Origin: Mobula hypostoma
Lineage: Eukaryota
Direction of reading: 5' to 3'
Assembly: GCF_963921235.1 (NCBI RefSeq)
Contig: NC_086097.1
Span: forward strand, 50,904,001 to 50,968,000
DNA: 64,000 nucleotides
In this document: positions 31,401-61,400 of the stretch, piece after piece
Numbering within the stretch: the stretch's first letter is position 1
Layout of the letters: each line of letters starts with the position of its first letter
Made by a program: the position numbers and the translations under genes
The notes under the pieces: model-generated
What the model saw: the letters and a program-made list of their open reading frames with translations, nothing else
What the model was told of the DNA's origin: nothing
The model's database searches: none

Positions 31401-34400
31401 ATAACGTGCTTTGCAAGATTGGTCATGAAGCTCATTAACTCCTGCCTGAGGAGTAACCTGTATCGTCTTCAATTTGCCTACCGCCACAACAGGTCAACAG
31501 CAGATGCCATTTCATTGGCCCTTCACTCAGCTCTAGAACATCTGGACAATGAAGATCATGACGCTCTTCACTGACTACAGTTCAGCATTCAACAGTATCC
31601 TCCTCTCGAAACTCACTTTTTAAACAATGGAACCACATGAGCAATACGCCAATCCTCCGGCACCATCCCCGTTTCCAATGATACTTGAAATATTTCTGTC
31701 AGAGCCCCTGCTATTTCCACACTACCTTCCCTCAAGGTCCTAGGGAATATCTTGTCCGGACCCAGAGACTTATCCACTTTTATATTCCTTAGAAGCGCCA
31801 GTACTTCCTCTTCTTTAATCGTCATACTTTCCATAACTACCCTTCTTGTTTCCTTTACCTTACACAATTCAATATCCTTCTCCTTAGTGAATACTGAAGA
31901 AAAGAAATTGTTCAAAATCTCCCCCATCTCTTTTGGCTCCGCACATAGCCGACCACTCTGATTCTCTAAGGGACCAATTTTATCCCTCAGTATCCTTTTG
32001 CTATTAATATAACTATAGAAATCCTTTGGATTTATTTTCACCTTTAAACTCTGATGTGAACATATATAGATTTTTTAAAATCTTCAACTTTGGAGCAACC
32101 AGTATAAATAACTGATGGAGGGAATAACATTGAGGTTTGAAATTAAGGTCAACAAGTTAAGAGATTTTTCTTATGCTTTTTTAATGACATAACAAAAAGA
32201 AGTTGAACAGGGAACCGAAATTGCGTGGAATTGAAAAAGCAAAATCTGATGGGATAATTGATGTCTGACAAATGATAACATGATCCCCAATACCATTACC
32301 TGTCATTATTGTAACTTCAGTTATTTGTGGGTAGCAACTTTTGAATTAATAATCTTGTTGCACCATATTAGAGGATTCAAATTCATTAGAGCTCCTTTAA
32401 ACTTATTTATAAGATGGAACACCAGGTGGCGAAAGTGCTTAAACATCCAACAAAAAAAAACCACAATCTCATTAATATCTGTCACACCAGTAAAAGATTT
32501 ATATGGCAGTATGTACAAGAAGCTTTGAAAATAAGATTTTAATTAATGGCCTGCATTGTGACTTATTTTCTGGCGCTAACATTCCTCTTTCATGCATCTA
32601 CTGGTAATTCAAATAATGTTGAAAAACAATGGGGAAAACGGCTTGATCAGATCAAGAAGTGATATAGAAATTCGGCCCATATTCTTCTAACAAGATAAAC
32701 AAGAATTAATTTCATTTCCTGATGTAGGTAATTTCAAAGCAAACTCTCACAGATAGCTTTAGCAGACATCCCACCCAGCAAAAACTCATTTCAGGGAGGT
32801 AGCACCCCCCGCCCCCCCATATCCCCACCCCCTCAGGTCAACCTCCAAGGGTGCATGTATACAGGATATTTGATTATAAAAGAACACAACAATTTATTTG
32901 ATCACATATTAAAACTATTTACACACACATATTATATATATATATATATATAAATATATAAATTCCTTGCTGAGTATTTTGTTGGCAGTCTCAATGCTAA
33001 CAGCTAAATGGTAATGCAAATAGCTTTTCTATTTCTTTTGCAAACTTTCCTTGTACTGTGATGTGGCTTGCTTGGCAGATTTGAGCATTTTGCCAGAAGT
33101 CTCAACCTCAGAGCAGTCTGTGTCAATGAATTTGTTAATTTTGCAAGACATCAGATTCGCAAGTGTTTTGTGAGACAGCTGACTTCTGAATTCTGTCTTA
33201 ATGTGACGCACCATGCTGAATGCCTTTTCTACATCACAATTAGAATTTGCCAGCACCAAAAGCAGCTTCATCAACTGGCAGAGCTCTTTGAATCTCAACT
33301 GCCTTGTGCTCACATATTTTACTTTGGACAGCTTCCCCCAGAACTCATCAACTGGCAAACTTTTGTAGTTTGGCACCAGTCCTTCAAGGTTAGTTGAGAC
33401 ATAATCCAGGACTTCCAAGTGGAGCTGTTCTCTTGCATCTGCCTTGATCACATTTGGAAATCTCTCTGCCAAAGTCAAAATCTGGTCTGGATTCACCTCA
33501 TCTTGGCTCTCTGTATTGACCACTGACAAATTTTTCACAAGATTTAGTCTCTCAAAAGAAACTTCTCCAAGATTTTTTGAAAGTACCTGACATGGAATGC
33601 TCTAGCATCTTTGAAGAACTGCTTTGTCTTGTAAGGGAGGATCTCTTGTGCTTACTCGCTTAGCAACTGCCTCCTTTCCAGGTACCCAGTAAAAAGCTCT
33701 TCATCTGGGCAGTAAATTTCAGGGTTGCTCACATCTATCTCCTGAATGTTCTGTTCTCTCAATACCTTTGGCTCAGTAAATCTCCTTGCTATGTCATGCA
33801 GGAGCTCTTCTACACTCTGATTCAACTTGAAGAGGATAGATGCCTTGTTTTGGAAAATCAAATTGAATTTGTCAAAACATTGTGTGACATTATGGAGAAA
33901 GCATGTGTATATTTTCATTTGGGGGTCTTTAAGCCTCTTCTGAATATGAGATGACTTCTGATTCTCACTCTGACTCAAAATATGAAATGAAGGCTGGCCA
34001 TTGGTAGAGCAGATGGTCCAAACTTTTTCCTAAAGAAAGCCAGCATATAAAACAATGCTTTTGTACTCTCTGCTGGGCAACATTGCAGAGCTCTTGAAAC
34101 TGTTTTAGGCCTTCTCTTTGTTTGGAACTTTTCTCAAAGTAGTAGTAGATGTCAATGAGCAGTTCTTCAGATGACGTTGAGAACTCCTTAGCAGCAGTTT
34201 TGGCACAAATGTTGACCAGGTGACTTGGACAGCCAATGCTGTAAATATGAGGAGCCTGTGCTTTCACTCTTGATAAGACAGAGTTGTTTTTGCCAATCAT
34301 CACATTGCAGTTGTCACTGCTAAATCCTACACAATTAGACCATTCAAGGCCTTTGTCATGCATGGATGATGCAATGCAGTTGAATAGGTTTTCAGCTTTG

Positions 34401-37400
34401 GCATCATTGCATGTCTACAAATCCAACTGTTCCCTAATCCTGAGTTTCATTCAAGTACCTGACTAAAATGGCACATGATATTGCTGCTTTCATCAACCAA
34501 AATACTGTATGGCCTTTTTTCTGTCCAGATGAACTTGTACGGATCCTCTGAACATACAGGTTCCAGTGCCATGTTCACAGTTGCTGCTGTCTTGGTTGAT
34601 GAGCAGGCACAGTTTTTTGCTATTTCTGTACTTATAGATTATATTATCAATAGACAATAGGTGCAGTAGGCCATTCAGCCCTTCAAGCCAGCACCGTCAT
34701 TCACTGTGATCATGGCTGATCATCCACAATCAGTACCCCGTTCCTGCCTTCTCCCCATATCCCTTGACTCCGCTATTTTTATCATGGAGTAGTTTTTTTA
34801 TTCTATTACAACTTTAAGCACGTCTACAGGGAGTTTAGCCTCATCACGTAGGACATCAATAGAGTGGCTCCTTAGCAGCTAGCCAGCTAGTTTAAATAAG
34901 GTTAGCTATGCTAATGAACGAATGACATCTGTTAAACTCACCTCAACATGTTTTTTACAGTCATCTGGGCAATAGAAAAGCCACTGTTGCAAACAGTGCA
35001 GCGAGCAACACTGTCATTATTTTTTACCCCTATTAGGCAGGGGTACACTTTAGTGCAGTCTGGGGTGAAGTGCATTTTATATATTTTTTTGAAACACTCT
35101 GCCATGGCGGTGCAGGACACGAAACTGAACTGATGGAGAGACAGAGGTCAACTGTAAAGCCCGCCCACAGAGAAAACTGATAGGTCTACTTAGCACAAAG
35201 ACAGACCAATTAGGATGCTCGCTCTCGATCTCGCTCCCGCTCTCCCTCTCAAAAAAATTAATTTCCGGGATATTGTATATAATTTGCGGGTGTCAGGGAG
35301 CTGCCATCAATATGCGGGAGACTCCCGGAACTTCCAGGAGAGGTGAGATGTCTGCTTTAGTGATAGGGGATTTATTACTTAGTGGAACAGACAGGAGTTT
35401 CTGTGGACAAAAATGAGATTCCCGGATGGCATGTTGCCTAGGGTGACGAGGTCCTACAAAGTGAGTTCAGAGAGTTAGGTGCTACTTTAAAGGACAGGAC
35501 CTCCAGGGTTGTGATCTCAGGATTGCTACCCATGCCACAGTGCGGCATATAATTTAACACGTGGGTAAGGAGGTGGTGCAGGAGGGAGGCCTTCAGATTT
35601 TTGGATCATTGGGTTCTCTTCCAGGGAACGTGGGACCTGCACAGATAGGATGGTTTGCACCTGGACTGGAAGGGGATTAAAATCCCTGCAGGAAAGTTTG
35701 CTAGAGCCGCACAGGTGGAGAAGAGCTAAACTATAGTTGCAGGGGGATAGAACCAGAGCCCCAAAACAGATAGTGGAGTAATTGTGAGGAAAGATGTTGC
35801 TAAGCCTACATATAAAAATCAAGAATCAAAAGATTGAACATGGTGGGATCAAGTTGTGTATTTTTCAATGCATGTACAAAAGGCAGATGAGCTTAAGGCA
35901 TTGATCTGCTTGTGGAATTATGACAGTGTAGCTGTCAGAGAAGCAGAGGCTGGAGAGATAGGACAGGCAGCTCGATATTCCAGGGTTCCATTGCTTTGGA
36001 CATGATAGAGTGAGGGGGATTAAAGGGGGGAGGGAATGTATTATTAGTCACAGAAAATGCCATGGCAGTGCTCAGATAGGACAGACTAAAGAGCATGTCT
36101 ACAAAGGCTATATAGGTGGAACTGAGGAATAAGAACACAAGAACATTATTGGGAATGTATCATAGTTAGTCTGTGAGATTTAAAGGAGCACATTTGTAGA
36201 GAGATCATGGTAGATAAAGCGAGAGACACTTAAGGAGGAAATCAGGAGGGCTAAAAGAAGACATGAGGTTACTTTAGCAGGCAATCCCAAGGGCTTCTAC
36301 AGATATATTAAAAGCGAAGTACAGCAAGGGACAAAATTGATCCTCTGGAGATCAGAGTGGACATCTATGCATGGAGCCAAAAGAGATGAGGGTGATCTTA
36401 AATGGATTTCTTTGGATCTGTATTTACTCAGAGACCATGTACAGGTAACAGAGGAGGTGGTGTTATTTGCCTTGAGGAAAATTAGAGTGGATAAATCCAG
36501 GGCCTGACAAGGTGTACACTTGGACTGTGTGAAATGCTAGCATAGAAATTGCAGGGACCCTAGCATACTTAGCCACAAGTGAGGTGCCAGAGGATTGGAG
36601 GATTGGAGGATAGCTAATATTGTTCCATTCTAAGGGCTCCAAGAATTAGCCAGGAAATTATAGGCCAGTAAGCCTGATATCAGTAGAGGGTTAAGTTATT
36701 GGAAAGGAATTCTAAGGGACTGGATATAACATTAATATAGGGATAGACAGAGACAGATTTGGGATAGTTAACATGGCTGTGTGCTTGGTAGGTCACGTCT
36801 AATCAATCTTACAGAGTTTTTCCAAAGAAGTTACTAGGAACCTTGATGAAGGCAAGGCAATGGATGTTGTCTACATGGGCCAGCAAGGCCTTTGACAAAA
36901 TCCTGCATGAGAAGTTGGTTAAGAAGGTTAAAAGGCTTGGCATTCAAGATGACATAGTAAACTCGATTAGACATTGGCTTAGAGGAAGAAGCAAGTGAGT
37001 GGCTGTAGTTACCTCTGACTTGTGGTGCGCTGCAGGGATCAGTGCTAGGTCCGTTATTATTTTTTTCATCTCTAATATCAACAATCTGAACGTTAATGTG
37101 GCACCAAGCTTAAGGGGTGAAGGTGTAGTGGACAGCTAGGAAGGCTATCAAAGTTGGACCAGCTGGAAAAAATGGCACATGATATTTAATGTAGACAAGT
37201 ATAAGGTGTTGAGGAACCAGGGCAGGATTTACAGGGTAAGCAGTAAGCCACTGAGGAGTGCAGTGGAACCGAGGGATCTGGGAATACAGATCCATAATTC
37301 CTTGAAAATGGCATCACAAGTGAATATAGTCATAAAGGAAGCTTTGGCACATTGGCCTTCATAAATCAAAGTATTCAGCTCAGGATTTGGGATATCATGT

Positions 37401-40400
37401 TGACGTTGGAGGGGCCTAATTTGGAGCATTCTGCTCAGTTTTGGTCACTTACCTGCAGGAAAGACATCAATAAGATTGAAAGAGTGCAGAGAAAATTTAC
37501 AGGGATGTTGCTGGGACTTGAGGACCTGAGCTACAGGGAATGGTTGAATAGGTTATAGGACTTTATTCCCCAGAGCGTGGGAAAATGAGGTCAGGGGAAC
37601 ATGAGTAATGAAGGGTACAAATAGGGTAAATGCAAGCAGGCTTTTTGGAGTCTCTGCTTCTGTCAAATTAAAATCCCCATGGCCTATGGGGAGCCTCCTA
37701 CGTAGTTTAGAACAAAACAAATGTAGTGCACTTTCTTATTTAACTCTAATTTGCATGCAACATTTCAGATTTATAGGTTGCTTCGTTACTAAGCTATGCA
37801 CAGGACCTAGAGACATTCTATTTTACTTCACATCTTTAGATCACTTCAAGAATGCAGAGTAAAGAGTTTCAGCAAGTTATCAGTGCAAGATACCCAAGAG
37901 TGATAATGACTTAATATTTCTGCAATTCAAATGTTCAAAATGATGCTGTGAACCCAATAACAAATGGTTTGCACAATAGATTCACAAAATATATTCATAA
38001 ATTTGGGAAAGACTACTTCATCACTAACGTCCTTTACAGGTTTGCATAAAAGTATAAAAAGCATTTTGGTCACAGCAATCACATGTTCTCTTACAATTTC
38101 ATAAATCAACAGTGTCTTGAAAAAGTATTCAGCTCTCACAACTGTTTTCACATTTTACTGTCTCATTTTCTAAATTTAAAATACATTAAAGTAGGATTTT
38201 TTTTAGCTAATCTACTAAACATGTCAAATCAAAAGAAAATTTCCAAAATCTGTCAAGAATTTAACAAAAATTAAAAACCAAACATGTGAGGGTGAAAAAG
38301 TATTCATCCCTTTTGTCATTACTATGCCAATTTTCCTCAGATGCAGTATATTACCTTACCAACTCACCCAATTTGTTGATGAAGAAAATTGAAAGATCAT
38401 TTACTTTCAAAGAATTCATAAGAATAAATACCCCCTCACTTGGCAAGGTCCAACAACGTGGTAGATTTTCAACAGACCAAACCAAAATGAAGACAAAAGA
38501 GCATTCAAGACAAGTCATGGAAATTATAATAGAGAAGCACAAATTTGGGGAAGTGTACAAGACCATCTCAAAGGCACTGAACATACCTCTGAGCTCAGTG
38601 AAGTCCATTGTAAACAAAGCTGAAACCACAAAAAAAATGAAACCAGTCACACTGTCTAGGTCAGGCTACCCCTCTAAACTTAGTTGTTGGAGTAGAATGG
38701 CACTTGTAAGGCAGGCTACTGTGATGCCAACAGTCACTCTGACTGAGCTGCAGAAATCAGTAGCTGCAATTGGATATGAAGTTCATGGCTACACAATCTC
38801 TTAGGCCTTGCACAAGAAGGACATTTTTGGGTGGCAAGGAAGAAGCCCTGGTCAAAAAAATAAAAGCATACCTTGCCAGGAAAGACTTTCCAAAGCATCA
38901 CTTAGATGCTGTAAAGATGCAGAAGGTCTTGGGGTAGGATGAGATAAAGCACAGTTTTTATGCTTTAGTTTTCCCTGTTTTTTTGAGCTCCACTGAGGAA
39001 AAAAATGAGCACGTGATTCACAAATAAAAATTCTTAATTAAATTGATCAAAATCACTGTTTGTAATACTCATTTATGTGAACAAAAGTTGGGGGCTGAAT
39101 ACTTTTACAAGGTACTGTAAATTCAGCAGTGCCATGTTAATCAATGGATATAAAATAGAATCATTTTCAGTGAAGGATATAGTCAAACAAGGCTATGTTA
39201 TTTCCCCAACACTTTTCTCAATGTTTCCTACTGCAATGTTGCATCTGAAATCACCATATTTTCTGTGGGAGTGGAATTAAACAGCTGAACTAATAAGAAG
39301 CTGTTCAACCTATTTCAACCACACTCAAAAGTACATTAGCAGGTATGTGTACAGTATACAAACCCTCAGATTTGTTCTCCTGCAGGCAGACACAAAAATA
39401 AATCAACGCCATGGAACCCATTTAAAGAAAAGGTCAAACATCCGACGCGTGATAAAAGAGCAAATCAAGCAAACAGCAAAAAGCAAGCAAATGACAAATA
39501 GAATCCTAAATATCAAACCGCAGAGTTCCTGAAACAGTCAAGGAGTAACTGCCACCAAGTCAGTTCAGTTTAGCGCTTTATTGATGACTCAGCCGCAGAG
39601 CCAGTTCTGCACTGAAGCGTCTCAATCAAATTGCACAAGTAGCAAAAAAAAGAGTAACAAGAAACATATGGAATGTGAAACGCTGCAGAATCCTCCAAAA
39701 ACAAGTCCACATCAACAGAGTACGTTCAGCGCTGAGGACACTTAACATCAAACTATTGAGTCCCAAAGGGAAAAAAAAAGTCCTACAGCCACAAGCTGGG
39801 GCAAGGTGAATGAACCTGTGACATCCTCTGGCAGCAGCAAGAGGGAAAACGATCAAATGTAGGCAGACAGTGCCGAACACCCGTTTGTCTTCTGCTCTTG
39901 TCCCTGTTGATTTCAATCTTGCTAAAACCTATAAATCGACAAGGAGTAATGGAGCAGACCATGGGTTGACATTCCACCATTAGGGAACGATGGACACACA
40001 CTCCACTCTCAACCTCGCCGACGTATGCCGTTGAGATGGCCATGGAACCATCTGAGCCATGAGGCCACACTGCAAAGGTGCCATTGATGTATCTGAAGCA
40101 GTATTTGGGGTGTAAGAGTGATTAACTCAGAGTCCGCTCCTCAAAGATCACCATGTAGAAATTAGCAACAGCCAGCGACAAGGGCGATCCTATGGCCACT
40201 CTGTCTGCTTGTTCATATTAGCTTCTCTTGTAGAAGATATATCCTCTGAACAGCAGACATCCAGACATTCAATTTACCATGGCGATGGAGAAGAATGGTT
40301 GCCTCCCGTTCCTGGACATTCTAATATGATGGAAACCTGGCAGTAGCCTCAGACGTGGTGTCTATCGGAAACCTACTTACACGGACTTGGACCTCAACAA

Positions 40401-43400
40401 TAACAGCCATCATCAGGCCTCCCAACAAAGAGCGGTTCTTTCTACTTTGATTAACTGTGCAAAAACTATTTCGGACCTGTAGAGTCTCCATGAGGAAATA
40501 AGACGATTACACACAATGTTCCTACAGAATGGCTACAAGGTGAAGGAAATCAATCTGACCCTTAAAGGGGCCAATGGAAAAAACCTGGAAAAAAACTCCT
40601 GCTACTGCTTGTCTCCCCAGTATTTCCGTGGTTTCTGGAAGGATCGTCAGGAACCTGAAGAAATACCAGATTAATACCACCCACTAACCCGTAAAAATGC
40701 TCCATTCACAGCTTACCATGTCAAAGATGACCTGGGCTTCAGGACCGCTGGCATTTTAGGATTCCGTGAATGTGGAGCAGCGTATATTGGCCAGACAGGA
40801 TGCACTGTGGAAATCCACATCAGGGGGGAGTGCAGGAGGTGTATCTGTTTGGGTTACTCGGAGAAATCGGCAGCAGCAGAACATTGCATTCGCTTTGACT
40901 TTGATGCCACAAAACTACTGTGCTGTGCCAATGGATTTTGGGACCGCCTGGTAAAGGAAGCCATTGAAATAAAACTAGAGGAAAAGAATTTTAACACGGA
41001 CAAAAGTCTCACTCTAAGTAAGAACTGCAATTCAATAGAAAACAAGGTGGGAGAGCGGAATCCTCATTGGATGACGACGAACCAATCAGGAGGATTAGAC
41101 AACGCTGGTATAACTACGACCAGAGTAGACATGTCCCAGCATCATCCCTAATGGGGATGGCAAAGTCTGTCATCAAAACATCAGTTAAAATCAATTTCTG
41201 TACCTGATTGGAAGCCCAAGAAGAGCACATTTGTCATATTCACCAGGAAAGCACTAGATCCCCCTTTGCAAATATCGTTCTCTTAAAGAACACTGCAAAC
41301 CAATATCAGTTTCCAATCCCAGGCCAATATCTCCAGTATTCAGGCTCCGGTACTCAGTCAAACATATTAGTCATGCTGATAACATGCCCAACACCAGGCT
41401 ATCAAAGCAGACATTCCACTCTGACCTCCATCGAGGGAGGACATCACCAGGCCTCCGGAAGAAATGAAACATACCACGGACTCCCAGGAATCACAGACCC
41501 ATGACTGTTCAAACTGAAGCAGCCTTTGGAATGGTATTGAGAACCTGGAAGCTACATATCAGGATTCCAGGAGGAGTGATCCACCTCAAACCATCCAGCC
41601 ATCATCTGCTCCATCTATGGAAGAGTCTATGGTTCCTACATTGGACTTCAAGCCTCACAAAACAATTCAGGAAGTAAGTGATCAATTCCAAGATACCAGG
41701 AAGAATATTTTCAGAGATAATGATTTCACTGTAATGTAGAATAATACTGACAGTGATTACCACTTTATTGTTGACCTCCTTTGAAAAAAAAAATCTCTTG
41801 CCATCAGGCACTGAATTATCTGGTTTTGTAGCAAAAATACTCCATAGACAGTAAATACTTACAGTTGATTTCCGATTGTGTCCTTTCTGCTCTTGTATTC
41901 TTGTTAGTGGATCGAATTGTATGAGGCACAGCAGAGAGAGGCTATAAAACAGCAGGAAAAAAAAGGGGAGACAAAAAAATCTGAACATTTTTAATAAATA
42001 AAATTACTTCAGAAATGAAACTAAGCTCATTGCCAGCAACAAATCTTTAGCCCACATAATGTCTCAACGGATAAAAACAAAATTCAATGTCTGAGACAAC
42101 TGAAAAGGTCCAAAAGTCTGCTGAACAGCTAAATTTTGTGTTGTATTAGTCTATCCACCTCAATATCTGCTGCAGGGCTTGAACTGAATTGTCCTGAATT
42201 CTTGATAGACTCATGGTGATTAAACTCTTTTAACAGTATGGGAAAAGGTGGCATATTTCATGCAGTAAATGGTAAATAAACAGATAAGTTGAAATTTCAA
42301 GTTTGGACATGACATGATCTAGTCTCATTTTGGATGTAGATAGTTATGGCACTCGAACAAAGCTTGATTTCATTCTCTGCTTTGTACTTTACTCATATCT
42401 TTGAATTTCTCTTCTATTGAAATTAATAGACATCTAGATTTTTATCTACATTTGATTTTTATACTTAACTGACATATAATCAGCGCACATGAATCTGAAG
42501 TGCTTGGGAGCTGATCAACCCAGGCATCCCACCTTGCAAAAACTCATTTCAGGGAGGCAGCACCATCAAATTCTGGGAGAGGTAGGATGTCTGTAATAGA
42601 GTAGCTCCTGAGCCAGCTAGTTTAAATAACGTTAGCTATGCTAAGGAACAAACGACACCTGTTAAACTCACCTCAACATGTTCTTTAAAGCCTTAATCCA
42701 CCATGGGCAATAGAAAAGTCACTGTTGCAAACAGTACAGCGAGCAATGCTGTCATTATTTTGACCCCTATTAGGCAGGGGTACACTTTAGGGTAGTCTGA
42801 GGTGACGTACATTTTATATTTTCTTTTTTTGGAACACTCTGCCATGGCGCGCTCTCTCTCTCTCTCGCTCGTGCGCTCTCTCGCTTGCTTTCTCTCGCTC
42901 TCGCTTGCTTGCTCTCGTTCTCTCTCTCTCTAGGTCACTCTCGCACTCTCTCTTGCTTTCTCTCTCTTGTTCATTCTCAAAAAAATGATTTCCGTGATAT
43001 TGTATATAATTTGCGGGCATCAGGGAGCCACTATTAATATGCGGGAGACTCCCGGAACTTCCGGGAGAGGTGGGATGTCTCTCAACCCAATTTACAAAAA
43101 GTGAAATATTACACAACTAATGTATCATACCTCAAGATCATCATCATCCGCCTCGTTGAAAAGATGGTGATTTTCAGGATTTTTGACTTTGTCCAATAAA
43201 TCTACTGCCAATGATCTGGATAAGGTTGATTGTGTTAAAAACGAATGCTGAAAAAAAAAAGACAATAAATAGAATTTTAAATTCTCAAAACTGTATATCA
43301 AACAAATATTGGAAGGTATATAAATATACATTTTATAATAAGGACTGAATTTTTTTATTATCTTAGTATGAAAAATGCTTTTTCTAAAATTTATAACAAT

Positions 43401-46400
43401 CTGAATACTGCAAAAAAACCCATAAAAAGTTTCCAATCTGCTTGCATAGAAAACAACTACACAATATATCATTAATCTATTTACCTATGCTACCTCAAAG
43501 TTATTTATATTCTGAAATACTTTGACAAAAATATAAAAGCCAAATTCAAGTTTTCAGATGCATATTTCTACTAAGCACTACTTAATTAAAATCAACAATA
43601 AAAGGTGTTTCCAGCCTTCAATCTCTTTTCCACTCTCCTTTTCTTATTACACTGTATGATATGGATCCCCTGAAAAGTTTGGGAAGGGGGAGCAAGGGTG
43701 AGACATTAGGACTTGACTGAAAAATTGTCAAGACCACACCTGGAGCAATATTGCCAAATGCTGTTCTGATCTTCACATTATAAGGAGGAAGTGATGCACT
43801 GAAGATTCACCAGAATAGTGTTGGAATTGCAGCATTTTTGGAGCGATTAGTCAGGCTGAGTTTATTTTCCCTAGAATGGAGGAGGCTAACAAGAAATATG
43901 CAGAAGTACAAGTGGGCAGATTGCATCATCCTGAATGCCTCCTAAATGCATCTTCTTTCTTTCTTTTCCAATATTTTTTATTAAATTTCATATACACAAA
44001 TACAGAATTCATAAGGATACTTATTATAAATCAAAATAAGGTAGCATAAAATACATTATATGTAAATCACAACGATACAATCACGGGTATCCAATATTCA
44101 TAATCAATCAAATAAAATAAATTAAATTATGAAATACAATATGGTTAATGATATTATAAACAAAATCTACACCCACTACCAAGACAAAGCTGGTTGGTAA
44201 AAAAAAACAAAAGAAAAAAAAAGTACTTTACATTATAGTATTTTATAATAGCCCAGATCTATATTTTAATAACAATAACAATTCAAAGATTTTCAAAATA
44301 GTTCAGAAAGGGTCCCCATAGCATTTGAAAATCTTGATTCGAATCAGAAATCGAACAACGAATCTTCTCTAAATTTAAACATGACATAACATCGCATAAC
44401 CATTGAGCATGTGCAGGGGGGCAAACTCCTTCCATTTAAGCAAGATCGCCCTCCTAGCCACAAGAAAAATAAAAGCCAGTACCCGCAAATGAGAAGGCTC
44501 CAAAATTATAGCTCTTTTCTCAACAATACCAAATAAGGCGGTCAAAGGATTGAGCTTAAAATTAACTTTAAAAAGTACAGAAAAAGTTTGGAATACATCT
44601 TTCCAATATGTTTCAAGGCTCGAACATGACCAAAACATATGAATTAATGAAACCTCTGATGACTCTGCCACAGTTGGATGCATCAGCAAGGGAGATGAGG
44701 TTGAGTACAGGGCTACGGTAGGAAACTTTGTCACATGGTGTGAGCAGAATTATCTGCAGCTTAATGTGAAAAAGACTAAGGAGCTGGTGGTAGACCTGAG
44801 GAGAGCTAAGGTACCGGTGACCCCTCTTTCCATCCAGGGGGTCAGTGTGGACATGGTAGAGGATTACAAATACCTGGGGATACGAATTGACAATAAACTG
44901 GACTGGTCAAAGAACACTGAGGCTGTCTACAAGAAGGGTCAGAGACATCTCTATTTCCTGAGGAGACTGAGGTCCTTTAACATCTGCCAGACGATGTTCT
45001 ACGAGTCTGTGGTGGCCAGTGCTATCATGTTTGCTGTTGTGTGCTGGGGCAGCAGGCTGAGGGTAGCAGACACCAACAGAATCAACTCATTCGTAAGGCC
45101 AGTGATGTTGTAGGGATGGAACTGGTGACTCTGACGGTGGTGTCTGAAAAGAAGATGCTGTCCAAGTTGCATGCCATCTTGGTCAATGTCTCCCATCCAC
45201 TACATAATGTACTGGTTGGGCACAGGAGTACATTCAGCCAGAGACTCATTCCACCAAGATGCAACACAGAGCGTCATAGGAAGTCATTCCTGCCTGTGGC
45301 CATCAAACTTTACGAGTCCTCCCTTGGAGGGTCAGACACCCTGAGCCAATAGGCTGGTCCTGCACTATTTCCTGGCATAATTTACATATTACTATTTAAC
45401 TATTTATGGTTTTATTACTATTTATTATTTATGGTGCAACTGTAATGAAAACCAATTTCCCCCTGGGATCAATAAAGTACGATTATGACTATTACATCTG
45501 TCACAATAAGGAGATATATCTGCAAAAAAATGAGAGAGCTTGTCTTTAGGCATATGAGCCCCATGTATCACTTTAAATTGTAGGAGGGAATGACAAGCAC
45601 ATAATGAAGAAGAATTAACCATTTTGAAAACAGCCCTCCAGGTCTCATCAGATAATGAAGTCTGTAAATCCTTTTCCCAATCTTTTTAAATTTTGTCTAA
45701 AGGAGCCATTCTCAGTCCCAACCAGAGATCATAAATATAAGATATTGAGCCATTATAGAAACATAGAAAATAGGTGCAGGAGTAGGCCATTCGGCCCTTC
45801 GAGCCTGCACCGCCATTTATTATGATCATGGCTGATCATCCAACTCAGAACCCAGCCTTCCCTCCATACCCCCTGACCCCTGTAGCCACAAGGGCCATAT
45901 CTAACTCCCTCTTAAACATAGCCAATGAACTGACCTCAACAGTTTGCTGTGGCAGAGAATTCCACAGATTCACCACTCTCTGTGTGAAGAAGTTTTTCCT
46001 AATCTCGGTCCTAAAAGGCTTCCCCAATATCTTCAAACTGTGACCCCTCGTTCTGGACCTCCCCAACATCGGGAACAATCTTCCCGCATCTAGCCTGTCC
46101 AATCCCTTTAGGATCTTATACGTTTCAATCAGATCCCCCCTCAATCTTCTAAATTCCAACGAGTACAAGCCCAGTTCATCCAGTCTTTCTTCATATGAAA
46201 GACCTGCCATCCCAGGAATCAATCTGGTGAACCTTCTTTGTACTCCCTCTATGGCAAAGATGTCTTTCCTCAGATTAGGGGACCAAAACTGCACACAATA
46301 CTCCAGGTGTGGTCTCACCAAGGCCTTGTACAACTGCAGTAGTACCTCCCTGCTCCTGTACTCGAATCCTCTCGCTATAAATGCCAGCATACCGTTCGCC

Positions 46401-49400
46401 TTTTTCACCGCCTGCTGTACCTGCATGCCCACTTTCAATGACTGGTGTATAATGACACCCAGGTCTCGTTGCACCTCCCCTTTTCCTAATCGGCCACCAT
46501 TCAGATAATAATCTGTTTTCCTATTTTTGCCACCAAAGTGGATAACTTCACATTTATCCACATTAAATTGCATCTGCCATGAGTTTGCCCACTCACCCAA
46601 CCTATCCAAGTCACCCTGCATCCTCTTAGCATCCTCCTCACTGCTAACACTGCCACCCAGCTTCGTGTCATCCGCAAACTTGGAGATGCTGCATTTAATT
46701 CCCTCATCCAAGTCATTAATATATATTGTAAACAACTGGGGTCCCAGCACTGAGCCTTGCGGTACCCCACTAGTTACCGCCTGCCATTCTGAAAAGGTCC
46801 CGTTTATTCCCACTCTTTGCTTCCTGTCTGCTAACCAATTCTCCACCCACACCAATACCTTACCCCCAATACCGTGTGCTTTAAGTTTGCACACTAATCT
46901 CCTGTGTGGGACCTTGTCAAAAGCCTTTTGAAAATCCAAATATACCACATCCACTGGTTCTCCCCTATCCACTCTACTAGTTACATCCTCAAAAAATTCT
47001 ATGAGATTCGTCAGACATGATTTTCCTTTCACAAATCCATGCTGACTTTGTCCGATCATTTCACCGCTTTCCAAATGTGCTGTTATCACATCCTTGATAA
47101 CTGACTCCAGCAGTTTCCCCACCACCGACGTTAGGCTAACTGGCCTATAATTCCCCGGTTTCTCTCTCCCTCCTTTTTTAAAAAGTGGGGTTACATTAGC
47201 CACCCTCCAATCCTCAGGAATTAGTCCAGAATCTAACGAGTTTTGAAAAATTATCACTAATGCATCCACTATTTCTTGGGCTACTTCCTTAAGCACTCTA
47301 GGATGCAGACCATCTGGCCCTGGGGATTTATCTGCCTTCAATCCCTTCAATTTACCTAACACCACTTCCCCACTAACATGTATTTCACTCAGTTCCTCCA
47401 TCTCACTGGAGGAACTGAGGTTATCAAAAGGTTTCAAATTAAAAATTACATCTATTATGTTCTTATCCGGGCTGGTAGGAAATATATGTAATTTAGATCT
47501 TAAAAAATCTCTAATCTGCAGATATCGAAAAAAGTGAGTATTTGAGAGGTTATACTTCACTGAGAGCTGCTCAAAAGAAGAAAGATTCCCTCCAACAAAC
47601 GGATTCTGAAATCATTTGATGCCTAATCTATCCCATTCTCTAAAAAACAGATTGGTTGTAGATGGTTTTAAAAAAAAAATTAGAAAAAAATAGGACTAGA
47701 AAGGAAAAATCTCAATAAACCGAAATGTTTTCTAAACTGTAGCCAGATCCTCAAAGTGTGTTTAACCACCAAACTTTCAGTTAATTTATTTAAAGATAAA
47801 GGAAGAGAGGATCCAAGAAGAGAAGTAATAGAAAATTTCGTAACAGAGTTGGCTTCCAAAAAGACCCACATTGGACAATTCTCACGATTTATATAATATA
47901 ACCAGAACGCAAGATTTCATATGTTAATTGCCCGATACTATAACCTAAATTGGGTAGAGCAAGGACTCCATTCTTTTTAATTTTTTGAAGGTGAGCTTGA
48001 TTTTCTGTTCTTCCATATATAGGAAGAAAGAATCGAATCTAAAGAATCAAAAAAAGACAGAAATAAAAACAGGTACGGCTTAACGGTACATAAATTTAGG
48101 TAAAATATTCATTTTAATAGAATTAATTCAACCAATGATAATGAGAGAGGCGACCAATTAGAAAGTGTCTTTTTCACATACGATGATCAGATCTGAAGGC
48201 TTCTTGATACAAAGGATTGACCAAACTACTGATTCGGAAAAGACAAAAGATGGAGATACAAGTTTCATGATAAACTCCCTGTGGTGGTCATTCTTCCGAA
48301 CTTGTGTTCCCCTGAACTTGAACACCTAACAATCAAATGCCATCCGCTCTACTTACCAAGGGAGTTCCTATCCGTGATCTTGTCTGCCGTTTAAATACCA
48401 GCAGCTGACTATAATCAAGTGCTTGAGATACTGCATGACGCTATCACAAAACAAGAAACAGTCCATCCTAGTGGACTATATCATAGTGGGGGATTTCTTC
48501 AAATGAGTTTGCTTAGCCCCCTACTCTATTTGCTTTACACTTATGACTACATGGCTAAGCACAGCTCCGATGGCATATTCAATCAAGTTTGCTGATGACA
48601 CCACTGCTGTAGGCCAAATCAAAGGTGGTGACAAATCAGTGGAGTGGTGCTACAACAACTACCTCTTACTCAATGCCAACAAGATGAAGGAGCTGATTTC
48701 TTGACTTCAGGAGGAGGAAACCAGAGGTCCATGAGGCAAGTCCTCAGAGTGTTCGGAAGTGGAGAGGGGCAGCAACTTTAAATTCCTCTGTATTATAATT
48801 TCAGAGGATCTGTCCTGGGCCCAGCATGCAATTTCTTATAAATTACAAAGAAAACACAGCAGCACCTCTACTTCCTCAGGAGCTTACGAAGATTTGGCAT
48901 GACAACTAAAACTTCGACAAACTTCTATAGATGTGTGGTGGAGAGTATATCGACTGACTGCATCACAGCCTGGTAAGAAATACCAATGCCCTTGAATGGA
49001 AAATCTGACAAAAAGTAGTGTAAAGCCCTCCCATCAGGGAGCATATCTACATGGAGTGTTGATGCAGAAAGCAGCATCCATCATCAAGGATGCCCACCAT
49101 CCAGGTCATGCCCTCTTCTCTCTGCTGCCATCAGGAAGCTGGTACAGGAGCCTCAGGACTCACACCACTAGGTTCAGGAATAATTAACACCACTCAACCA
49201 TCAGCATCTTGAACCAAAGGGGATAACTTCATTTAACTTCACCTGTCTGTCACTGAAATGTTCCCATAGCCTATGGATTCACTTTCAAGGATTCTTCATC
49301 TCACGTTCTGAATATTTATTGCTGGTTTGTTTGTTAATTAAGTATTTGTATTTTCTTTTTGCATTTGTAGTTTGCCATCTCTTGCACACTGGTTGTATGC

Positions 49401-52400
49401 CCAGTTGGGGCTATCTTTCATTGATTCTATCATGGATATTGGATTTCTTGAATATGCCCGCAAAAAGGTTAATCTCAGGGTTGTACTTTGACAACAAGTT
49501 TACTTTGAACAATATAGAATTATTAAAATATGCATTTGTTCTACAATTAGTAGTAGAATTTTATCCTTGAGGGCAGAGAAAAAAAATAGGTGAGCTGCTT
49601 TAAATGAAATCAACTAAAATTTACTTACAGTCAGTAGTTTCTCAGCTGTTGGTCTCTTCCTTGGATTTTTTGTCAATGCTATTTTGAGAAAAGAATGGAA
49701 TGTTGCAGTCCTGAAAGTAACATATTAAATTATTAGACATTTTTTGAAACTATAGATACTTTTTGTCACTTCAATTAATGTAACTATCACAGGGTTCTTT
49801 TTATGGCCTTAAACAGTAATTGTGTTAACTGTTCCTTCATAATTAAACTACAGTCAGAACAAATGCAAATACTATTATTTTATTATCTATCTGTAATAAA
49901 CAACTTAGCATAAAATCCATCAAAACTTAAAGATAAATATTTGCACCTTGAGAAAAATATACCTTGTGCCACAAGTGAAACTGGAAAGTTACAACACACA
50001 TCAAAGTTGCTGGTGAACACAGCAGGCCAGGCAGCATCTCTAGGAAGAGGTACAGTCGACGTTTCGGACCGAGACCCTTCGTCAGGACTAACTGAAGGAA
50101 GAGTTAGTAAGAGATTTGAAAGTGGGAGGGGGAGGGGGAGATCCAAAATGATAGGAGAAGACAGGAGGGGGAGGGATGGGGCGGCCCCACTTTCAAATCT
50201 CTTACTAACTCTTCCTTCAGTTAGTCCTGACGAAGGGTCTCGGCCTGAAACGTCGACTGTACCTCTTCCTAGAGATGCTGCCTGGCCTGCTGCGTTCACC
50301 AGCAACTTTGATGTGTGTTGCTTGAATTTCCAGCATCTGCAGAATTCCTGTTGTTTGCCTAAAAAGTTACAAGTTACATTTTTGTATTAGTGCTATTCAA
50401 TACCACTCTCACAACCTTCTAAAAGTCTGGAAGATGAAAACCAATGCTGCTGCTACTTTTAAAATATTAACTTGATGAAACGCATCACTTTAATTTCACC
50501 AGACTTTCTGTTTACTATTACATTAAGTTCCGTACTATATCTTTGGCTTCTCACAATTTCGAGTATGTAAACAAACTTTGAGACAACATTTGTAAAGCGA
50601 TGCACTAACAAAACATTAACAAGGAAATACAGACACGAGGAAATCTGCAGATGCTGGAAATTCAAGCAACACACACAAAAAAATGCTGATGACCACAGCA
50701 GGCCAAGCAGCATCAATAGGAAGAGGTACAGTCGATGTTTCAGGCTGGGACCCTTCGTCAAGACTAACTGAAAGAAGAGATAGTGAGAGATTTGATAGTG
50801 GCAGGGGGAGGGGGAGATCGGAAATGATAGGAGAAGACAGGAGGGGAGGGGTGGATCTAAGAGCTGGAAAGTTGATTGGCAAAAGGGATACCAGGCTGGG
50901 GAAGGAAGAGGATCATGGGACGGGAAGCCTGGGGAGCCCCTTCTCTTTCTCCCCAGGCTTCCCGCCCCATGATCCTCTCCTTTCTCCAGCCTCATATCCC
51001 TTTTGCCAATCAACTGTTCAGCTCTTGGCTCCATCCCTCCCCCTCCTGTCTTCTCCTATCATTCCAGCATTTTTTGTGTGTGTTACAAGGAAATACAGTA
51101 TATTCTGTAAGCTGAACTTAGACAAAGTTGAAAGGAGCTCACAATGCTCAGCAAATTTACCACATCCAATTGTCAGTCAAATGAAATATAATGCTGAACA
51201 ATATACACATGTACGTTACTACAATAAAATTACGGTCATGTTGTATGTATTCTGGTAAACTCCGACTTCAAGCCCTGCATTTATTTAACTATTTAGTGAT
51301 ATAGCACAGAGTAGGTCCTTCCCGCCCTTTGAGCCACACCGCCCTAGAAACACCCAACAATCCGTATTGACCCTAACCTAATCATGGGACAACCTTACAA
51401 TGACCAATTAACCTACTTGGTGTTGGGACGACAGGAGGAAACTGGAAAATCCCCATGCATTCCACGGGGAGGAAGTGCAGAGAGACACCTTACAGAACAG
51501 CACTGGAATGGAACTCCGAACTCTGGAATGCTCTGACCTGTAATAGCTTTCTGCTATCCACTATGCTACCAAGGAATTTTGGTCGTTAAAATAATTAAGA
51601 CTTGGAAGCAGCCACAAGAATAACGCTAAGTATGAATGTTTTAATTTTTGAGTGAAGACTTCCAATCTTAATAAGGTGAAAACAGAGACCAATCTTTTAA
51701 GTAAGATACTACATAAAATAAAACTCCAAGATAAATTGCAAAAGTAGGGCAAATAGAGGCACTAGTCAAAGTAATAAAAGCAAATCTGAACGCAAAACGA
51801 TCCCATATTCAATGATTAGTAAAACTGGATTCCAGATGAGAGTGCAAAACTAAAAATAGGCAACATACACAGGAGAAAATTTGCAGATGCTGGAAATCCA
51901 AGCAACACACACAAAATGCTGGAGGAACTCAGCAGGCCAGCCAGCATCTATGGAAAAGAGTATAGGTGCAGTGTAATTAATTGTTTAACTATATTAAGTA
52001 AAATGAACTAAATGGTAATGTTCCTTCATTTGTATTTATCCTATGAATTTAAGTTTAGAATGTTGTTACAACCGGTACCATTCAAGGTTAATACCCTGCC
52101 CTTATGAGATCAGCTATCTATCCACCCCCTTCCCTTTCCAGGAGGACAATCTCATGTCTCTCACAAATAAATTTCATCTGACATCACTCTATCCAATTCA
52201 ATATCTGACTGTATCATTCTGTATCCTAAATCTACGCTACCCAATATTAACATTATCAAGTTTCATGTCATTTGCAGACTTATTAATCAAACTCCTAAAT
52301 TCATATTTAAGTTGCTAATGCATACAACAAACAATAAGGATTCCAGTACTAATCATTGTGGTATACTGCTAATCATAAAAGCAACTTCAGTTAGGTGAGC

Positions 52401-55400
52401 CCTTATTCCAAGAAGCAATCAAACTTCTCTTTCTAGCCCCCTCCGAGCAGTATATCCTCTCATAAACAAGATGATCTAAACCAGATACAGTATTGCAGAT
52501 GTGGCTTCACCAAAGCTTTATTTAACTATTAATAGAAGCATACTCACCATTTCATTTTATCTTTCAGCTTAGGGGGTTGAAATCCACTCTTAGTCATTAA
52601 AAACAATGCCCTATGGTAGAAGCATAGTCACGATATTAAAATATATAAAGTCAGTAGGTTTGCACTGCATAACATTTAAACGTAAACAAGTCAACTCATT
52701 TAGCACAACAATACTTTAAACCTCTTCCCAATTTAATAATCTCAGAATCAGAATAAGGTTTATTATTACCTGTATTTATTGTGAAATTTGTTAACTTAGC
52801 AGCAGCAGTTCAATGTAATACATAATGTAGAAGAAAAAATAATACAATAATAAATTAGTAAATCAACTTACAGTATACATATATTGAATACATTAAAATC
52901 GTGCAAAAAACAGAAATAATGTACATTAAAAAAGTGAGGTAGTGTTCACTTGGTCAATATCTATTTAGGAAACGGAGAGCAGAGGGGAAGAAGCTGTTCC
53001 TGAATCGCTGAGTGTGTGCCTTCAGGCTCCTGTAACTCCTACTTGATGGTAACAGTGAGAAAAGGGCATGCCCTGGGTGCTGGAGGTCCTTAATAATGGA
53101 CGTTGCCTTTCTGAGACACCACTCCTTGAAGATGTCATGGGTACTTTGCAGGCTAGTACCCAAGATGGAGCCAACTAAGTTTACAAACCTCTGCAACCTC
53201 TTTCAATCCTGTGCAGTAGCCTCCCAAAACAGACAGTGATGCAGCCTTTCAGAATGCTCTCCACGGTACTTTTATAGAATTTTTTGAGTGTATTTGTTGA
53301 CGTACCAAATCTCTTCAAACTCAATGAAGTATAGTCGCTGTCTTGCCTTCTTTATAACTGCATCAGTATGTTGGGACCAGGTTAGGTCCTCAGAGATCTT
53401 GACACCCAGGAACTAGAAACTGCTCACTCTCTCCACTTCTGATCCCTCTATGTGGATTGGTATGTGTTCCTTTGTCTTACCCTTCCTGAAGTCCACAATC
53501 AGCTCTTTCCTCTTACTGATGTTGAGTGCAAGGTTGTTGCTGCGACACCACTCCATTAGTTGGCATATCTCACTCCTGTCTGTCCTCTTGTTTCTGTATG
53601 AGATTCTACCAATAATGATTGTACCACCAGCAAATTTGTAGATGGTATTTGAGCTATGCATAGCCACACAGTCATGGGTATATAGAGAGAATACAGCAGT
53701 GGGCTAAGCTCACACCCCTGAAGTGCAGCAGTGTTGGTTGTCAGCGAGGAGGAGATGTTATCACCAATCCGCACACATTGTGGTCTTCCGGTTAGAAAAT
53801 TGAGGATCCAATTGCAGAGGGAAGTACAGAGGCCCAGGTTCTGTAACTTCTCAATCATTATTGTGGAAATGGTGTTAAATGCTGTGCTGTAGTTGATGAC
53901 GTGGGTGTTTGTATTGTCCAGGTGGTCTAAGCCCATGTGAAGAGCCATTGACATTGCATCTGCCGTTGACCTATTGTGGCAATAGGCAAATTGCAATAGG
54001 TCCAGGTCTTTGCTGAGGCAGGAGTTGAGTCTAGTCATGACTAACCCCTCAAAGCATTTCATCACTGTAGATGTGAGTGCTACCAGGCGATAGTCATTTA
54101 GGCAGCTCACATTATTCTTCTTAGGCACTGATATAATTGTTGCCTTTTTGAAGTGGGAACTTCCATCCGTAGCAGCGAGAGGTTGAAAATGTCCTTGAAT
54201 ACTCCCGCCAGTTGGTAGGCACAAGCTTTGAAAGCCTTACCAGGTACTCCGTCTGGACCTTCCGCCTTGCGAGGGCTCACCCTCTTTAAAGACAGCCTAA
54301 CATCGGCCTCTGAGACAGAGATCACTGGGTCATCAGGTGCAGCAGGGATATTCACAGCCGTAGTTACATTCTCCCTTTCAAAGCGGGCATAGAAAACATC
54401 TAGTAGTGAAGCATTGCTGCCATTCATGCTACTGGGTTTCGCTTTGTAGGATGTAATGTCTTGCAACCCCTGCCAGAGTTGTCGTACATCCGATGTCGCC
54501 TCCAAGCTCATTCAAAATTGTCTCTTCACCCTTGAAATAGCCCTCTGTAAATCATACCTGGTTTTCTGGTACAGGACTAGGTAGCCAGACTTGAATGCCA
54601 CAGATCTAGCCTTCAGCAGACGACGTACCTCCTGGTTCATCCACGGCTTTTGGTTTAGGAATGTACAGTAAGGCTTTGCAGGCACACACTCATCCACACA
54701 GGTTTTAATGAAGTCAGTTACAACTGCATCTGTTAGCCTCTCCCTCTGTACTGCTCTGTTTCCTTATGTGGACATCAAAGATCCATCACATGTGGCAACA
54801 ATATACTTCAAACGCGCATAAAGGTATTCTTCCTAACATCTTGGTCTGACAATTTTACTCTTTTGCTGAAGCAAGATGTAACTAAGAGTTAGATAAGGGA
54901 CATACAATGTGGCTACTGCATTTAGAATTTTGGAAGGCTCAAATAAGACCTCAAATAAGAGATCATTACAGAAAATTAAAGTATGGGGGATTGAGAATTG
55001 GGTTGACAGACAGGAAACAGAGCAGGAACAAATGGGCACAAACATGAGATTCTGCAGATTCTGGAAATCTAGAGCAACACACACAAAATTCTGGAAGAAT
55101 TCAGCAAGTCAGACAGCACCTATGGAGGGAAATAAACTGTTGAAGTGTCAGGCTGAGAGCCTTCATCAGGAATAAAGGGGTCTTTATCAGGGTGGCAGAC
55201 ATGGCGTAGTGAGGTGCTACAGAATAAATATTTTGGTTCCAAGTAGTCACAATATTTATTCATGATTTGGATGAAGGACCTACAAGTAACGTCTTCAGAC
55301 CAGATAAAGCTGCAGAGATTGTGTATGGGTGGGAATGTGAGATACCAGGAGGAAGCAAAATCACGAATGTGTTTTGGCAATTTTGATAAGGGTGCACATG

Positions 55401-58400: not shown

Positions 58401-61400
58401 TAACATGAAATATAATTAAACCAGATATAATGTACTTTTATGGAGGATATCTAAACTTATTTGCTACAGAGCATAAATAACATTATTCACATCAATGTGG
58501 CTTTAAATCCTTCAGGCCTTTTCATCACCAAGTGCAAAAGAGAACTTGTCAACTTCACAGATTTAAAAAAAAACATAAAATACCTCATAGGATGCAAATC
58601 AAACATTGGAGGCTGCAGTTCAGCCAGTTCAATAGCTGTGATTCCAACTGCCCAGATGTCACATAGCTGATTGTAGCCACCATTTTTCTCTACTGCAGCA
58701 ACCTCTGGAGCCATCCTATAAACAAATATTCGCTTCAAATTCAATGAAACACACTTCAAAGAGCATAATTAACTTGTAGCTAAATGTCAACTTAGTTAGT
58801 TAGTTTAAAAGATACATGTGCCTGCTGAAATAAAATTGCAAAAGGTATAGATAGCCATTATAAATTAAGAGCTTATAAAATTCATAGAACTCAAAATAGC
58901 AACAAAATAATTCCATGAACTAAGTTACAAATATACTAGTTAATTAGTACATTAGTCATGGTGTTGTTCAGATATCATAGTAGTGAACACAGCAGTAATA
59001 CAAGTTTATAGTAGGTCTGGAATGTACTACTATAACATTGCAGCTCATTTGTACATGCATCTGGCTAATATATTAGCCACAGGCACGTGTGCTCATTAAA
59101 TGCATTTAAAGGCAATAACAAACTAAAATAAAATCTTGGCCCCCAACTATTAAAGTGAAATTAGGTACAGAATGCAATTGTGCAGGAACAGATACGAAAA
59201 GTTGGCTTCTCTCAACCATTCTTCAAATCTTTATTTCTATCACGTGAGTCAGTGAATGAGTGGCAGCTCCTTAGACTGGTTTTCGAATTATTTACTCCAG
59301 GAGGCAACTGCAAGGACTTTATTTACCAGTATGGGGTTCCAATGAAGGACTTCCTCTTGGCAATAGTTGCAGTTATTTTGGCAGCCACACCAAAGTCCGC
59401 TGAAATGTAAAATCAATATATTCACTTACTTTTTTTTGACAAAAGATCAGTATCAATGATTAGCTAAGTCAGTTTATTTAGTACAATGTCAGAATAGTGC
59501 TGATTACTGACAGTATCCACATAGAGAATCAAAAGGATTAAAGGATAGATTCATTTTATCCTATAACCATTTTTAAAGATGATGCCACCCAAAAGGGAAC
59601 CTGTGGCAGTGAAAGGGGCAAGCTGACCAGCAAATCAGATTAATGAATTTTCACAGAAAACAATGCAGAGAATATCCCAGCATCTATAGAGTACTTTGTG
59701 TTTAAAAGTCACACTTAATGATTTTAGAGAAAGAAAAAGTTGAGATAACTTACGATAAAGTAAAAATGTATAAATGACAAAGCTATTTGCAAGTGTTGCA
59801 GGAGGATGAGAGTTCACAATTATAAAATTTAATTTTTCCCTAGCCAATTTATAAAAATGTTCCCAAAACATTCTGGAATCAGTGAGAATAAATTGTTCAA
59901 TACTGTTTGAGAACTAGGTTAAACAAATACAAGCTAAACATTTTAGTGAGAATAATGGTCACATGGTTGAAGTTTTAAAAAGATAATGATTCTCTGTTAC
60001 AACAATGACAAGAAACTTACGGAAAAACAGCATTCACTAACAGCAAATTATGGAATGAAATAATTAAATACTTAACATTTTTACGTAGATTTGTTAATTT
60101 TATATGATTGTTTCTAAGCTGTTACTATTCCATGAGACCCTGGAATATTTTGGGCACCACACAATGATTCTACCATTTTACAAGACTGGCAATTTATTGG
60201 GCAAACTAAAGGAGAATTTTGGATGAATTAAGTCAAATTTTATTTAAACAAGATAGATTTCAATAATTCTGGTTAGATTTGGATTACACATTCTAATTGG
60301 ATTAGTTCTAGTTATTCATAAAAACTAGAGGTCTTACTGAATTAGGGGGAAAAAACAGCAGTAGATGATGCACTTTCCTTCCATTCTTTTGGAAAGTTGT
60401 GACTAAGCATTCTTGCATTGCTGGCATCAGGAGTTCCAAGTGCAGCTGTTTACTCATTCGAAGAACGTGGATTTCTCCTGTAATACCGCATTTAGTATCC
60501 ATTCCTAATTGCCTCTCAACTAAGCAAGCAGTTGCCTGAAAGAAGGCTTCCTGTTTATGTTTTTAAAATCATTGGAAAAGGGACAAGGAAACCACAAAGG
60601 CAAAAGAGAACTAATATGTACAGCAGAGTTTATCAAGTTGGAAATACTTTGAATTTTTACAATGAAACTAACATAGCATTGAGAAACACATGCAGTTATG
60701 CACAAATCCAATATTACCAGCCCAACTGATAATAAGAAACATTACAATCAATCCTATTTCTTTTAATCAATGATTACACTTTCCTGGGATCATACTGGAG
60801 TTTTGCCTTTCCCAACTTGACCACTAATAAGCAACCTGGGAGATCACCCATGTGAGATCTGCTAATTCAGCAGAGGTGTAAGACCAAACAAGAGATTCAC
60901 AGCAGCATAGCAGAAAGCTACTTGGGCAAGAACACAAAATTCAAAACAGCGTTCAGTAAATATGTACATAGTTATAATTACGATCCAAAACCAATGTATT
61001 AATTTAAAAATAACATATATTGAAGGTATTCTGTTTCAAAGGTTTTATAAAGTTCCATGTTGCCATCCTTTAAAATATACTTCAGCACCTTCTACTAAAG
61101 ACACTCCATCTATCAATTGATCCTCAAATGATTTTGATCATACCACCTTGTAGCCTCAAACATCCAACATATACATTACTCAAAATGCACCTTTATTGTA
61201 CTTTGCACTTGGTCAAGTATACATTTCCATAAATTTTCTGCAATGCAAAATTATTTTCTGATATTTTGTCACTAACTGCTTGATAAATGGCTGTTATTGT
61301 CTCAAATGATACTGATAACTAATTAACAATTCTCAAGAAAAGTCAATTGTGCATTTCGTAGTGGGTCTGAACCTGCATACTGATGTTATGTACTGACTTG

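Follow-up and report, generated by a model that had tools for sequence, protein, structure and literature searches.

Minimal hammerhead motifs in a MAP4K5 intron of Mobula hypostoma probably derive from two insertions of an amplified Penelope-like element

The DNA analysed here, referred to below as the window, is a 64,000-nt stretch of the Mobula hypostoma genome (contig NC_086097.1), and all positions are given in its coordinates. As a reading made earlier from the sequence only had proposed, the host gene of the motifs is MAP4K5, encoded on the minus strand. Proteins named MAP4K5 from sharks and other vertebrates match the exon at 58583-58717 (-) with 100% identity over 44 aa, and tblastn with four MAP4K5 proteins, shark and coelacanth among them, mapped about 20 exons to the minus strand. 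The motif cluster lies in a GT-AG intron of 2,837 nt (49710..52546, -) located between the kinase-domain exons 52612-52547 and 49709-49623. The splice joint from 49709 to 52547 is bridged by contigs of runs X1 and X4, which represent relatives and two studies and which we guess to be RNA.

Within this intron, a 36-nt motif at 50223-50258 (+) has an inverted twin at 50054-50089 (-). The motif consists of a 4-bp helix I, the CUGACGA core, one extra A, a 4-bp helix II closed by a 4-nt loop, GAAA, a palindromic ACGU and C17, the ACGU-C part forming no true helix III. Under the hammerhead numbering that we take to apply here, C17 corresponds to 50254 (+) and 50058 (-), and cleavage is predicted after these nucleotides; the site after C50254 is the one predicted previously, and this prediction is upheld. 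The core, defined as in PMC3088659 (C3 U4 G5 A6 N7 G8 A9 / G12 A13 A14 A15 / U16 H17), is complete at 50227-50254 (+) and 50058-50085 (-). The hammerhead pattern was matched twice in the window, whereas none of 100 shuffles contained any match. The initial identification of both motifs as minimal, dimer-type hammerheads of the Penelope-associated class is upheld. The palindromic ACGU would allow a dimeric helix III, the extra A lies between 9 and 10.1, and no pair is broken when the dimer is drawn. The plus copy, which is antisense to MAP4K5, represents the dominant form of the family (G10.1-U11.1), and both helices of the type I topology are present in its predicted optimum. The minus copy, which is sense in the MAP4K5 pre-mRNA, had been described as intact; this is true of its core but not of its helix II, in which a private change creates two adjacent G-U pairs, so that the helix is predicted to be unstable (the region alone folds to 0.0 kcal/mol).

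Two further copies lack a complete core. The degenerate motif at 50730-50765 (-) carries C3U and G16.2A and lies 676 nt from the other minus-strand copy, as had been noticed. The decayed copy at 55038..55175 (-; motif at about 55135-55175), which belongs to an older subfamily and has both the GAAA box and helix I broken, is also real, but it is located in the previous MAP4K5 intron rather than in that of the cluster. An Rfam scan of the window yielded no hammerhead at E ≤ 10 among the 59 matches listed, only hairpin-driven miRNA matches below threshold, which we infer to be due to the missing helix III in the case of the hammerheads.

The cluster is made up of two separate insertions, with a different target-site duplication for each. 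Both insertions (49995-50362 and 50633-51084) are head-to-head pairs of pLTR ends with a tail on one arm. Insertion 1 is bounded by an exact 10-nt direct repeat starting at 49985 and 50363 (left duplication, 49985..49994; right duplication, 50363..50372). Its left arm (49995..50182, -), delimited by BLAST to the family reference, is a 5'-truncated 3' pLTR with the short end and no tail, and its right arm (50184..50362, +) is a 5'-truncated 3' pLTR with a tail, differing from the left arm by 3 mismatches in 135 nt. Insertion 2 is flanked by an exact 14-nt direct repeat starting at 50619 and 51085 (50619..50632 and 51085..51098). In this case, the left arm (50633..50936, -) is an older, more diverged pLTR end with a tail, about 81-85% identical to the reference, and the right arm (50937..51084, +), in which the hammerhead-bearing middle is deleted, has the short end and forms a hairpin with 50823-50936. 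The empty site is represented by a single 1047-nt contig (contig 9) from a single run, X11, which is about 95% identical to the window and runs unbroken through 49432-49984, 50363-50618 and 51085-51295, joining 49984 to 50363 and 50618 to 51085 without either insertion. Two other remnants were observed in the window, namely, a separate tail-only fragment of an older subfamily without a hammerhead at 51845..51958 (-), and a decayed end from an older subfamily of the same Penelope family, with the hammerhead mostly lost, at 9529-9652 (+).

Elsewhere in the genome, copies of the repeat continue in the 5' direction into a reading frame that ends in a GIY-YIG domain. A genome search with the endonuclease region produced 227,960 first-look candidates, 150 of which were scored, and some of these lay in open frames as long as 1043 aa. 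Two full elements were retrieved; L069 and L070 share the organisation pLTR / 1043-aa ORF / pLTR, with pLTRs of 441 and 516 nt (97% and 99% identical, respectively) and the hammerhead motif in each. Pfam matches in the two ORFs (GIY-YIG, E 0.0011, in both; RVT_1, E 3.9e-6, in one) fell under the curated cut-offs. The ORF carries the DKG and YIDD motifs, a CX4CxxC linker (at aa 910 in L070) and two cysteines between GIY and YIG. [quoted passage not shown] The nearest named relative of the searched region is a bamboo-shark protein (72% over 76% of the region). An upstream ORF that would begin at an AUG and overlap the main start was ruled out, as the open frame contains no AUG. Exact copies of the plus motif, with U11.1, number 32,886 genome-wide and those of the form with C11.1 number 4,891, compared to 0 for the reversed controls. 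Because open 1043-aa ORFs occur with the same motif and the repeat is continuous with the GIY-YIG ORF, the family, a Penelope-like element (PLE), is autonomous, and its short copies are 3' ends that have been truncated on the 5' side.

The hammerhead class, the element architecture and the tail are already in print (parts of PMC4209133, PMC3846280, PMC8557442 and PMC11167929). The min-HHRs of metazoan PLE pLTRs, including Xena, Poseidon and Neptune of fish (Cervera and De la Pena 2014, PMC4209133), are, in the sections of that paper that describe them, likewise of type I with no real helix III, with palindromic 15-16 positions, an extra nucleotide between 9 and 10.1 and a 4-bp helix I. Like the present motifs, they are found in both pLTRs and mostly as single truncated copies, with opposite-strand pairs 100-700 bp apart. 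In contrast, the Schistosoma families have a helix II of 7-8 bp, compared to only 4 bp here; G10.1-U11.1 is the dominant form here; and with >37,000 exact copies the present family exceeds the 4,000-9,000 reported in coelacanth and Xenopus. Those sections name no cartilaginous fish among the min-HHR hosts. Neptune/Nematis-type EN+ PLEs, as characterised in portions of PMC8557442 and PMC3846280, share with this family the single ORF with RT and C-terminal GIY-YIG, the DKG motif and the CX2-5CxxC linker, as well as direct pLTRs, head-to-head inverted truncated copies, target-site duplications (8-10 nt in the rotifer examples versus mostly 9-15 nt here) and a one-ended tail of 30-40 bp. In Poseidon PAc of Anolis carolinensis (Frangieh et al. 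2024; excerpts of PMC11167929), the tail is defined by two internal sites of RT start that lie downstream of the hammerhead, the targets are AT-rich and both target strands are extended, and the same would hold for the present family. However, PAc belongs to the Poseidon clade, which lacks the linker that is present here, and its ORF starts inside the hammerhead; counting downstream from C3, the ORF frame of the present family opens after 85 nt and reaches its first shared Met at 166 nt. Our literature search found no description of this family or of the U11.1 shift, although the query on cartilaginous fish was swamped by hammerhead-shark papers and supplements may list such families.

To assess how the copies are arranged, we examined the first 100 of 34,800 places. 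Seven neighbour pairs within 1 kb were found, all of them head to head, compared to 1.2 expected in any orientation, and there were 0 same-strand neighbours within this distance. Two classes of 3' end, separated by about 35-40 nt, were distinguished in the retrieved loci and the window. A sample of 21 head-to-head pairs was drawn from the same sources, with duplicates and the two full elements excluded and with the loci picked by similarity searches rather than at random; it comprised 16 long/short, 4 long/shorter and 1 short/short pairs, but no long/long pair (binomial p 1e-5). Exactly one arm bears the tail in 20 of these 21 pairs, and both arms never do. Most head-to-head pairs bear flanking repeats of 9-15 nt. 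The pertinent parts of PMC3846280 and PMC8557442 report inverted pLTRs together with target-site duplications and a tail on one side, and PMC4209133 mentions, in its treatment of min-HHRs in fish PLEs, opposite-strand pairs 100-700 bp apart. Thus, the palindromic insertion is the routine product of this family.

The two arms of a pair disagree at 29 of 298 subfamily-diagnostic sites (0.097), compared to 112 of 6,156 other sites (0.018) and a rate of 0.438 between different loci. Hypermutable sites could account for the discordance, and one direct pLTR pair also differs at 4 of 25. In about 8 of 50 listed cut-site palindromes (hand count), the arms carried different subfamily-diagnostic bases, a hint of two template RNAs. 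As a possible genomic footprint of cleavage, 651 copies diverge exactly at the cut site, versus 276 at a single control position 10 nt downstream, and 75 perfect fold-backs have the cut site as their centre; the copies involved make up a few percent at most. Approximately 38 of the first 100 cut-site matches (hand count) continue with triplets that repeat the 5' side of the motif itself (microhomology junctions); of the first 100 control-position matches, about a quarter share one triplet that resembles a subfamily variant. The head-to-head products could have arisen if a dimeric enzyme primed one strand at each start site and the resulting cDNAs were joined head to head, a proposal to which we give somewhat less than an even chance. 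PMC3846280, in the section concerned, instead proposes self-priming on an antisense template.

We consider it very probable that an autonomous PLE of a cartilaginous fish, of Neptune/Nematis type and hugely amplified, gave rise to the cluster by two independent insertions specific to the lineage, and that the copies decay neutrally and do not cut the MAP4K5 pre-mRNA. By analogy with published work on other PLEs (PMC11167929, in part), the GIY-YIG endonuclease of the element would cut AT-rich DNA, reverse transcription would begin internally on the RNA, at either of two sites that lie downstream of the hammerhead, yielding either the short end or the tail end, and both target strands would be extended. 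The cDNAs from the two sides would then meet in the middle, and uncleaved hammerhead motifs would be copied passively. Each copy that has an intact motif upstream of the start sites would have come from an RNA that was uncut there. As a ribozyme, the motif of the source element is probably slow and dependent on both dimer formation and protein.

Constraint on the motif was evaluated in four subfamilies defined by anchored patterns, with 34,800, 2,895, 2,829 and 1,110 places, of which the first 100 listed were examined in each case. In the majority forms (determined by eye), all twelve core bases are kept, and differences occur at N7, loop 2 and 11.1, whereas the adjacent 3' flank varies among the subfamilies. 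No compensatory change was detected in helices I or II among these four subfamilies of one genome, helix I being fixed by the search anchors; therefore, the fold is supported by its fit to the known consensus and not by covariation. Of the two checks that had been suggested, core conservation between subfamilies was seen and helix covariation was not. Among 54 inserted copies not chosen on the exact motif, differences amounted to 6/540 at non-CpG core positions, 10/540 at other motif positions and 52/2,900 in the flanks; this comparison gives no clear selection after insertion.

The G10.1-C11.1 pair, which PMC4209133, in its account of the class, calls highly conserved, is present in the minus copy, in the 4,891 exact copies noted above and in the majority forms of the older subfamilies. 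In the plus copy (window position 50246) and in the 32,886 exact copies of the same form, it is replaced by G10.1-U11.1. U11.1 is also found in 39 of the 54 inserted copies, a sample that is biased towards relatives of the query but agrees with the genome-wide counts, and in all 4 pLTRs of L069 and L070. Thus, the most amplified lineage lacks the highly conserved pair. In the contigs, C dominates position 11.1 in runs X9 and X11 and T in runs X1 and X4, a weak hint of lineage-specific expansion.

Folding energies were predicted with nearest-neighbour models, in which tertiary contacts are ignored. The designed double hammerhead has a predicted energy of -14.7 kcal/mol for pairs of C11.1 copies, -9.5 for pairs of U11.1 copies, -3.5 for a pair of minus copies and -1.0 for the degenerate copy with the intact one, and the corresponding inactive optima are -32.1, -28.3, -23.4 and -21.2 kcal/mol. 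U11.1 would thus cost about 5 kcal/mol in the active dimer, and in the predicted optimum of the monomer the core is paired with the cleavage strand. Taken with the excess of U11.1 over C11.1 and its occupation of every pLTR in the two full elements, this raises the possibility that in the dominant lineage the motif has ceased to work as a ribozyme and is kept for another role, such as RNA structure near the RT start or a promoter, or by inertia. Nor do the 5' ends of the genomic copies show a large accumulation at the cut site, and in Anolis, as described in part of PMC11167929, hammerhead mutants do not block insertion in vitro; both observations point in the same direction. However, the twelve core positions are kept in four subfamilies with differing adjacent 3' flanks, the G-U still pairs, and one natural hammerhead carries even a U-U mismatch at 10.1-11.1 (PMC3088659). 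We regard loss of ribozyme function as a serious but rather unlikely alternative; it bears on the source element and does not conflict with the preferred explanation of the locus as two decaying insertions. A fuller scenario, in which a dimeric RT-endonuclease makes each palindrome by priming both of the cut strands, always one per internal start site and sometimes with two template RNAs, and in which the top lineage fixed the weakened G10.1-U11.1 because cleavage was dispensable or costly, seems to us doubtful.

The short repeat had been interpreted as a ribozyme-bearing, non-autonomous, retrozyme-like Penelope family; a reading of this kind would be a distinct retrozyme- or SINE-like family mobilised by a PLE. 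In line with this, the window contains only short ends with almost no ORF sequence, and animal non-LTR retrozymes are reported, in part of bioRxiv 10.64898/2026.07.22.740005, to derive from pLTRs; they share with the present locus a type I hammerhead of pLTR origin and a lack of coding capacity. Those retrozymes, however, are defined in that text as tandem units, whereas the ends seen here belong to an autonomous element, are dispersed, and are either inverted or truncated to varying extents, with no tandem units and 0 same-strand neighbours within 1 kb among the 100 listed places. Moreover, the 5' ends are scattered, with no fixed unit length, many loci run into the GIY-YIG ORF, and intact ORFs carry the same motif. 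This interpretation is therefore largely refuted and, in our judgement, highly improbable.

It had further been suggested that the two minus-strand motifs form a double hammerhead in cis that could cut the MAP4K5 pre-mRNA, with the inverted arm acting as a built-in antisense lock. Both motifs are indeed sense in the pre-mRNA and lie in one intron, 676 nt apart, and the minus copy at 50054-50089 retains all core bases. However, in the dimer of the degenerate and intact copies, one core would contain U3 (a U3-G8 wobble) and the other a 15.2-16.2 mismatch next to A15.1-U16.1, and the active form is predicted at only -1.0 kcal/mol versus -21.2 for the inactive optimum. When the minus strand was folded from 51120 to 49900, the intact copy, which sits in a 135-bp hairpin, was 97% paired to the antisense arm (-273 kcal/mol for the hairpin); in a snapshot before this copy is transcribed, the degenerate copy was 91% paired to the same arm. 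The antisense arm is thus predicted to capture first one partner and then the other, so that the two would not be free together. The lock fared better as a fold, given that the inverted arm would sequester the minus copy in the model, but not as a built-in device: head-to-head insertion is routine in the family, which makes the arrangement a by-product with no need for an adaptive explanation, and the two motifs come from unrelated insertions, both absent in a relative. PLE minimal hammerheads, moreover, show low and slow activity even as dimers (PMC4209133, in the passage on activity); the Anolis hammerhead depended on protein for cleavage, was dispensable for insertion in vitro and gave rise to no RNA-seq ends at its cleavage position (parts of PMC11167929); and among the Xenopus retrozyme dimers covered in part of bioRxiv 10.64898/2026.07.22.740005, 1 of 9 cleaved. 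In contigs of relatives, furthermore, the intron is spliced. A cis double hammerhead in the MAP4K5 pre-mRNA is implausible and cleavage of MAP4K5 RNA by these motifs very unlikely, and the regulatory proposal as a whole is scarcely credible.

Under the preferred explanation, that of two neutrally decaying insertions, the locus itself matters little, being a set of dead transposon ends in an intron; had the earlier model been true, it would have amounted to a transposon-made RNA switch in a kinase gene, and the evidence is against it. The family, in contrast, offers a very large data set on the role of the pLTR hammerhead and on the origin of head-to-head, one-tailed insertions, and its natural pair of C11.1 and U11.1 lineages provides a ready comparison for cleavage. 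If priming at both start sites were true, the family would be a natural record of PLE integration in tens of thousands of copies.

The window contains several other features. A match to U4 snRNA at 11629-11747 (-) extends over the whole model with 37.1 bits, below the gathering score, and is probably a pseudogene or decayed copy. A 158-aa frame at 40675-41151 (+) had no Pfam match and no tblastn match to the ORF of the hammerhead family; we presume it to be a divergent GIY-YIG end of another Penelope-like family. The 588-aa open frame at 45845-47611 (-) is what we take to be a CR1-type LINE reverse transcriptase, and many shorter fragments, for example, at 26-415, 13640-14392 and 31613-32074, are presumably of CR1 type as well. 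Frames at 33029-34414 (-) and 38265-38804 (+) look to us like hAT-like and Tc1-like transposase remnants, respectively. Finally, the direct repeats D14, D19 and D20 link 34881-35353 and 42611-43080, which are about 7.7 kb apart.
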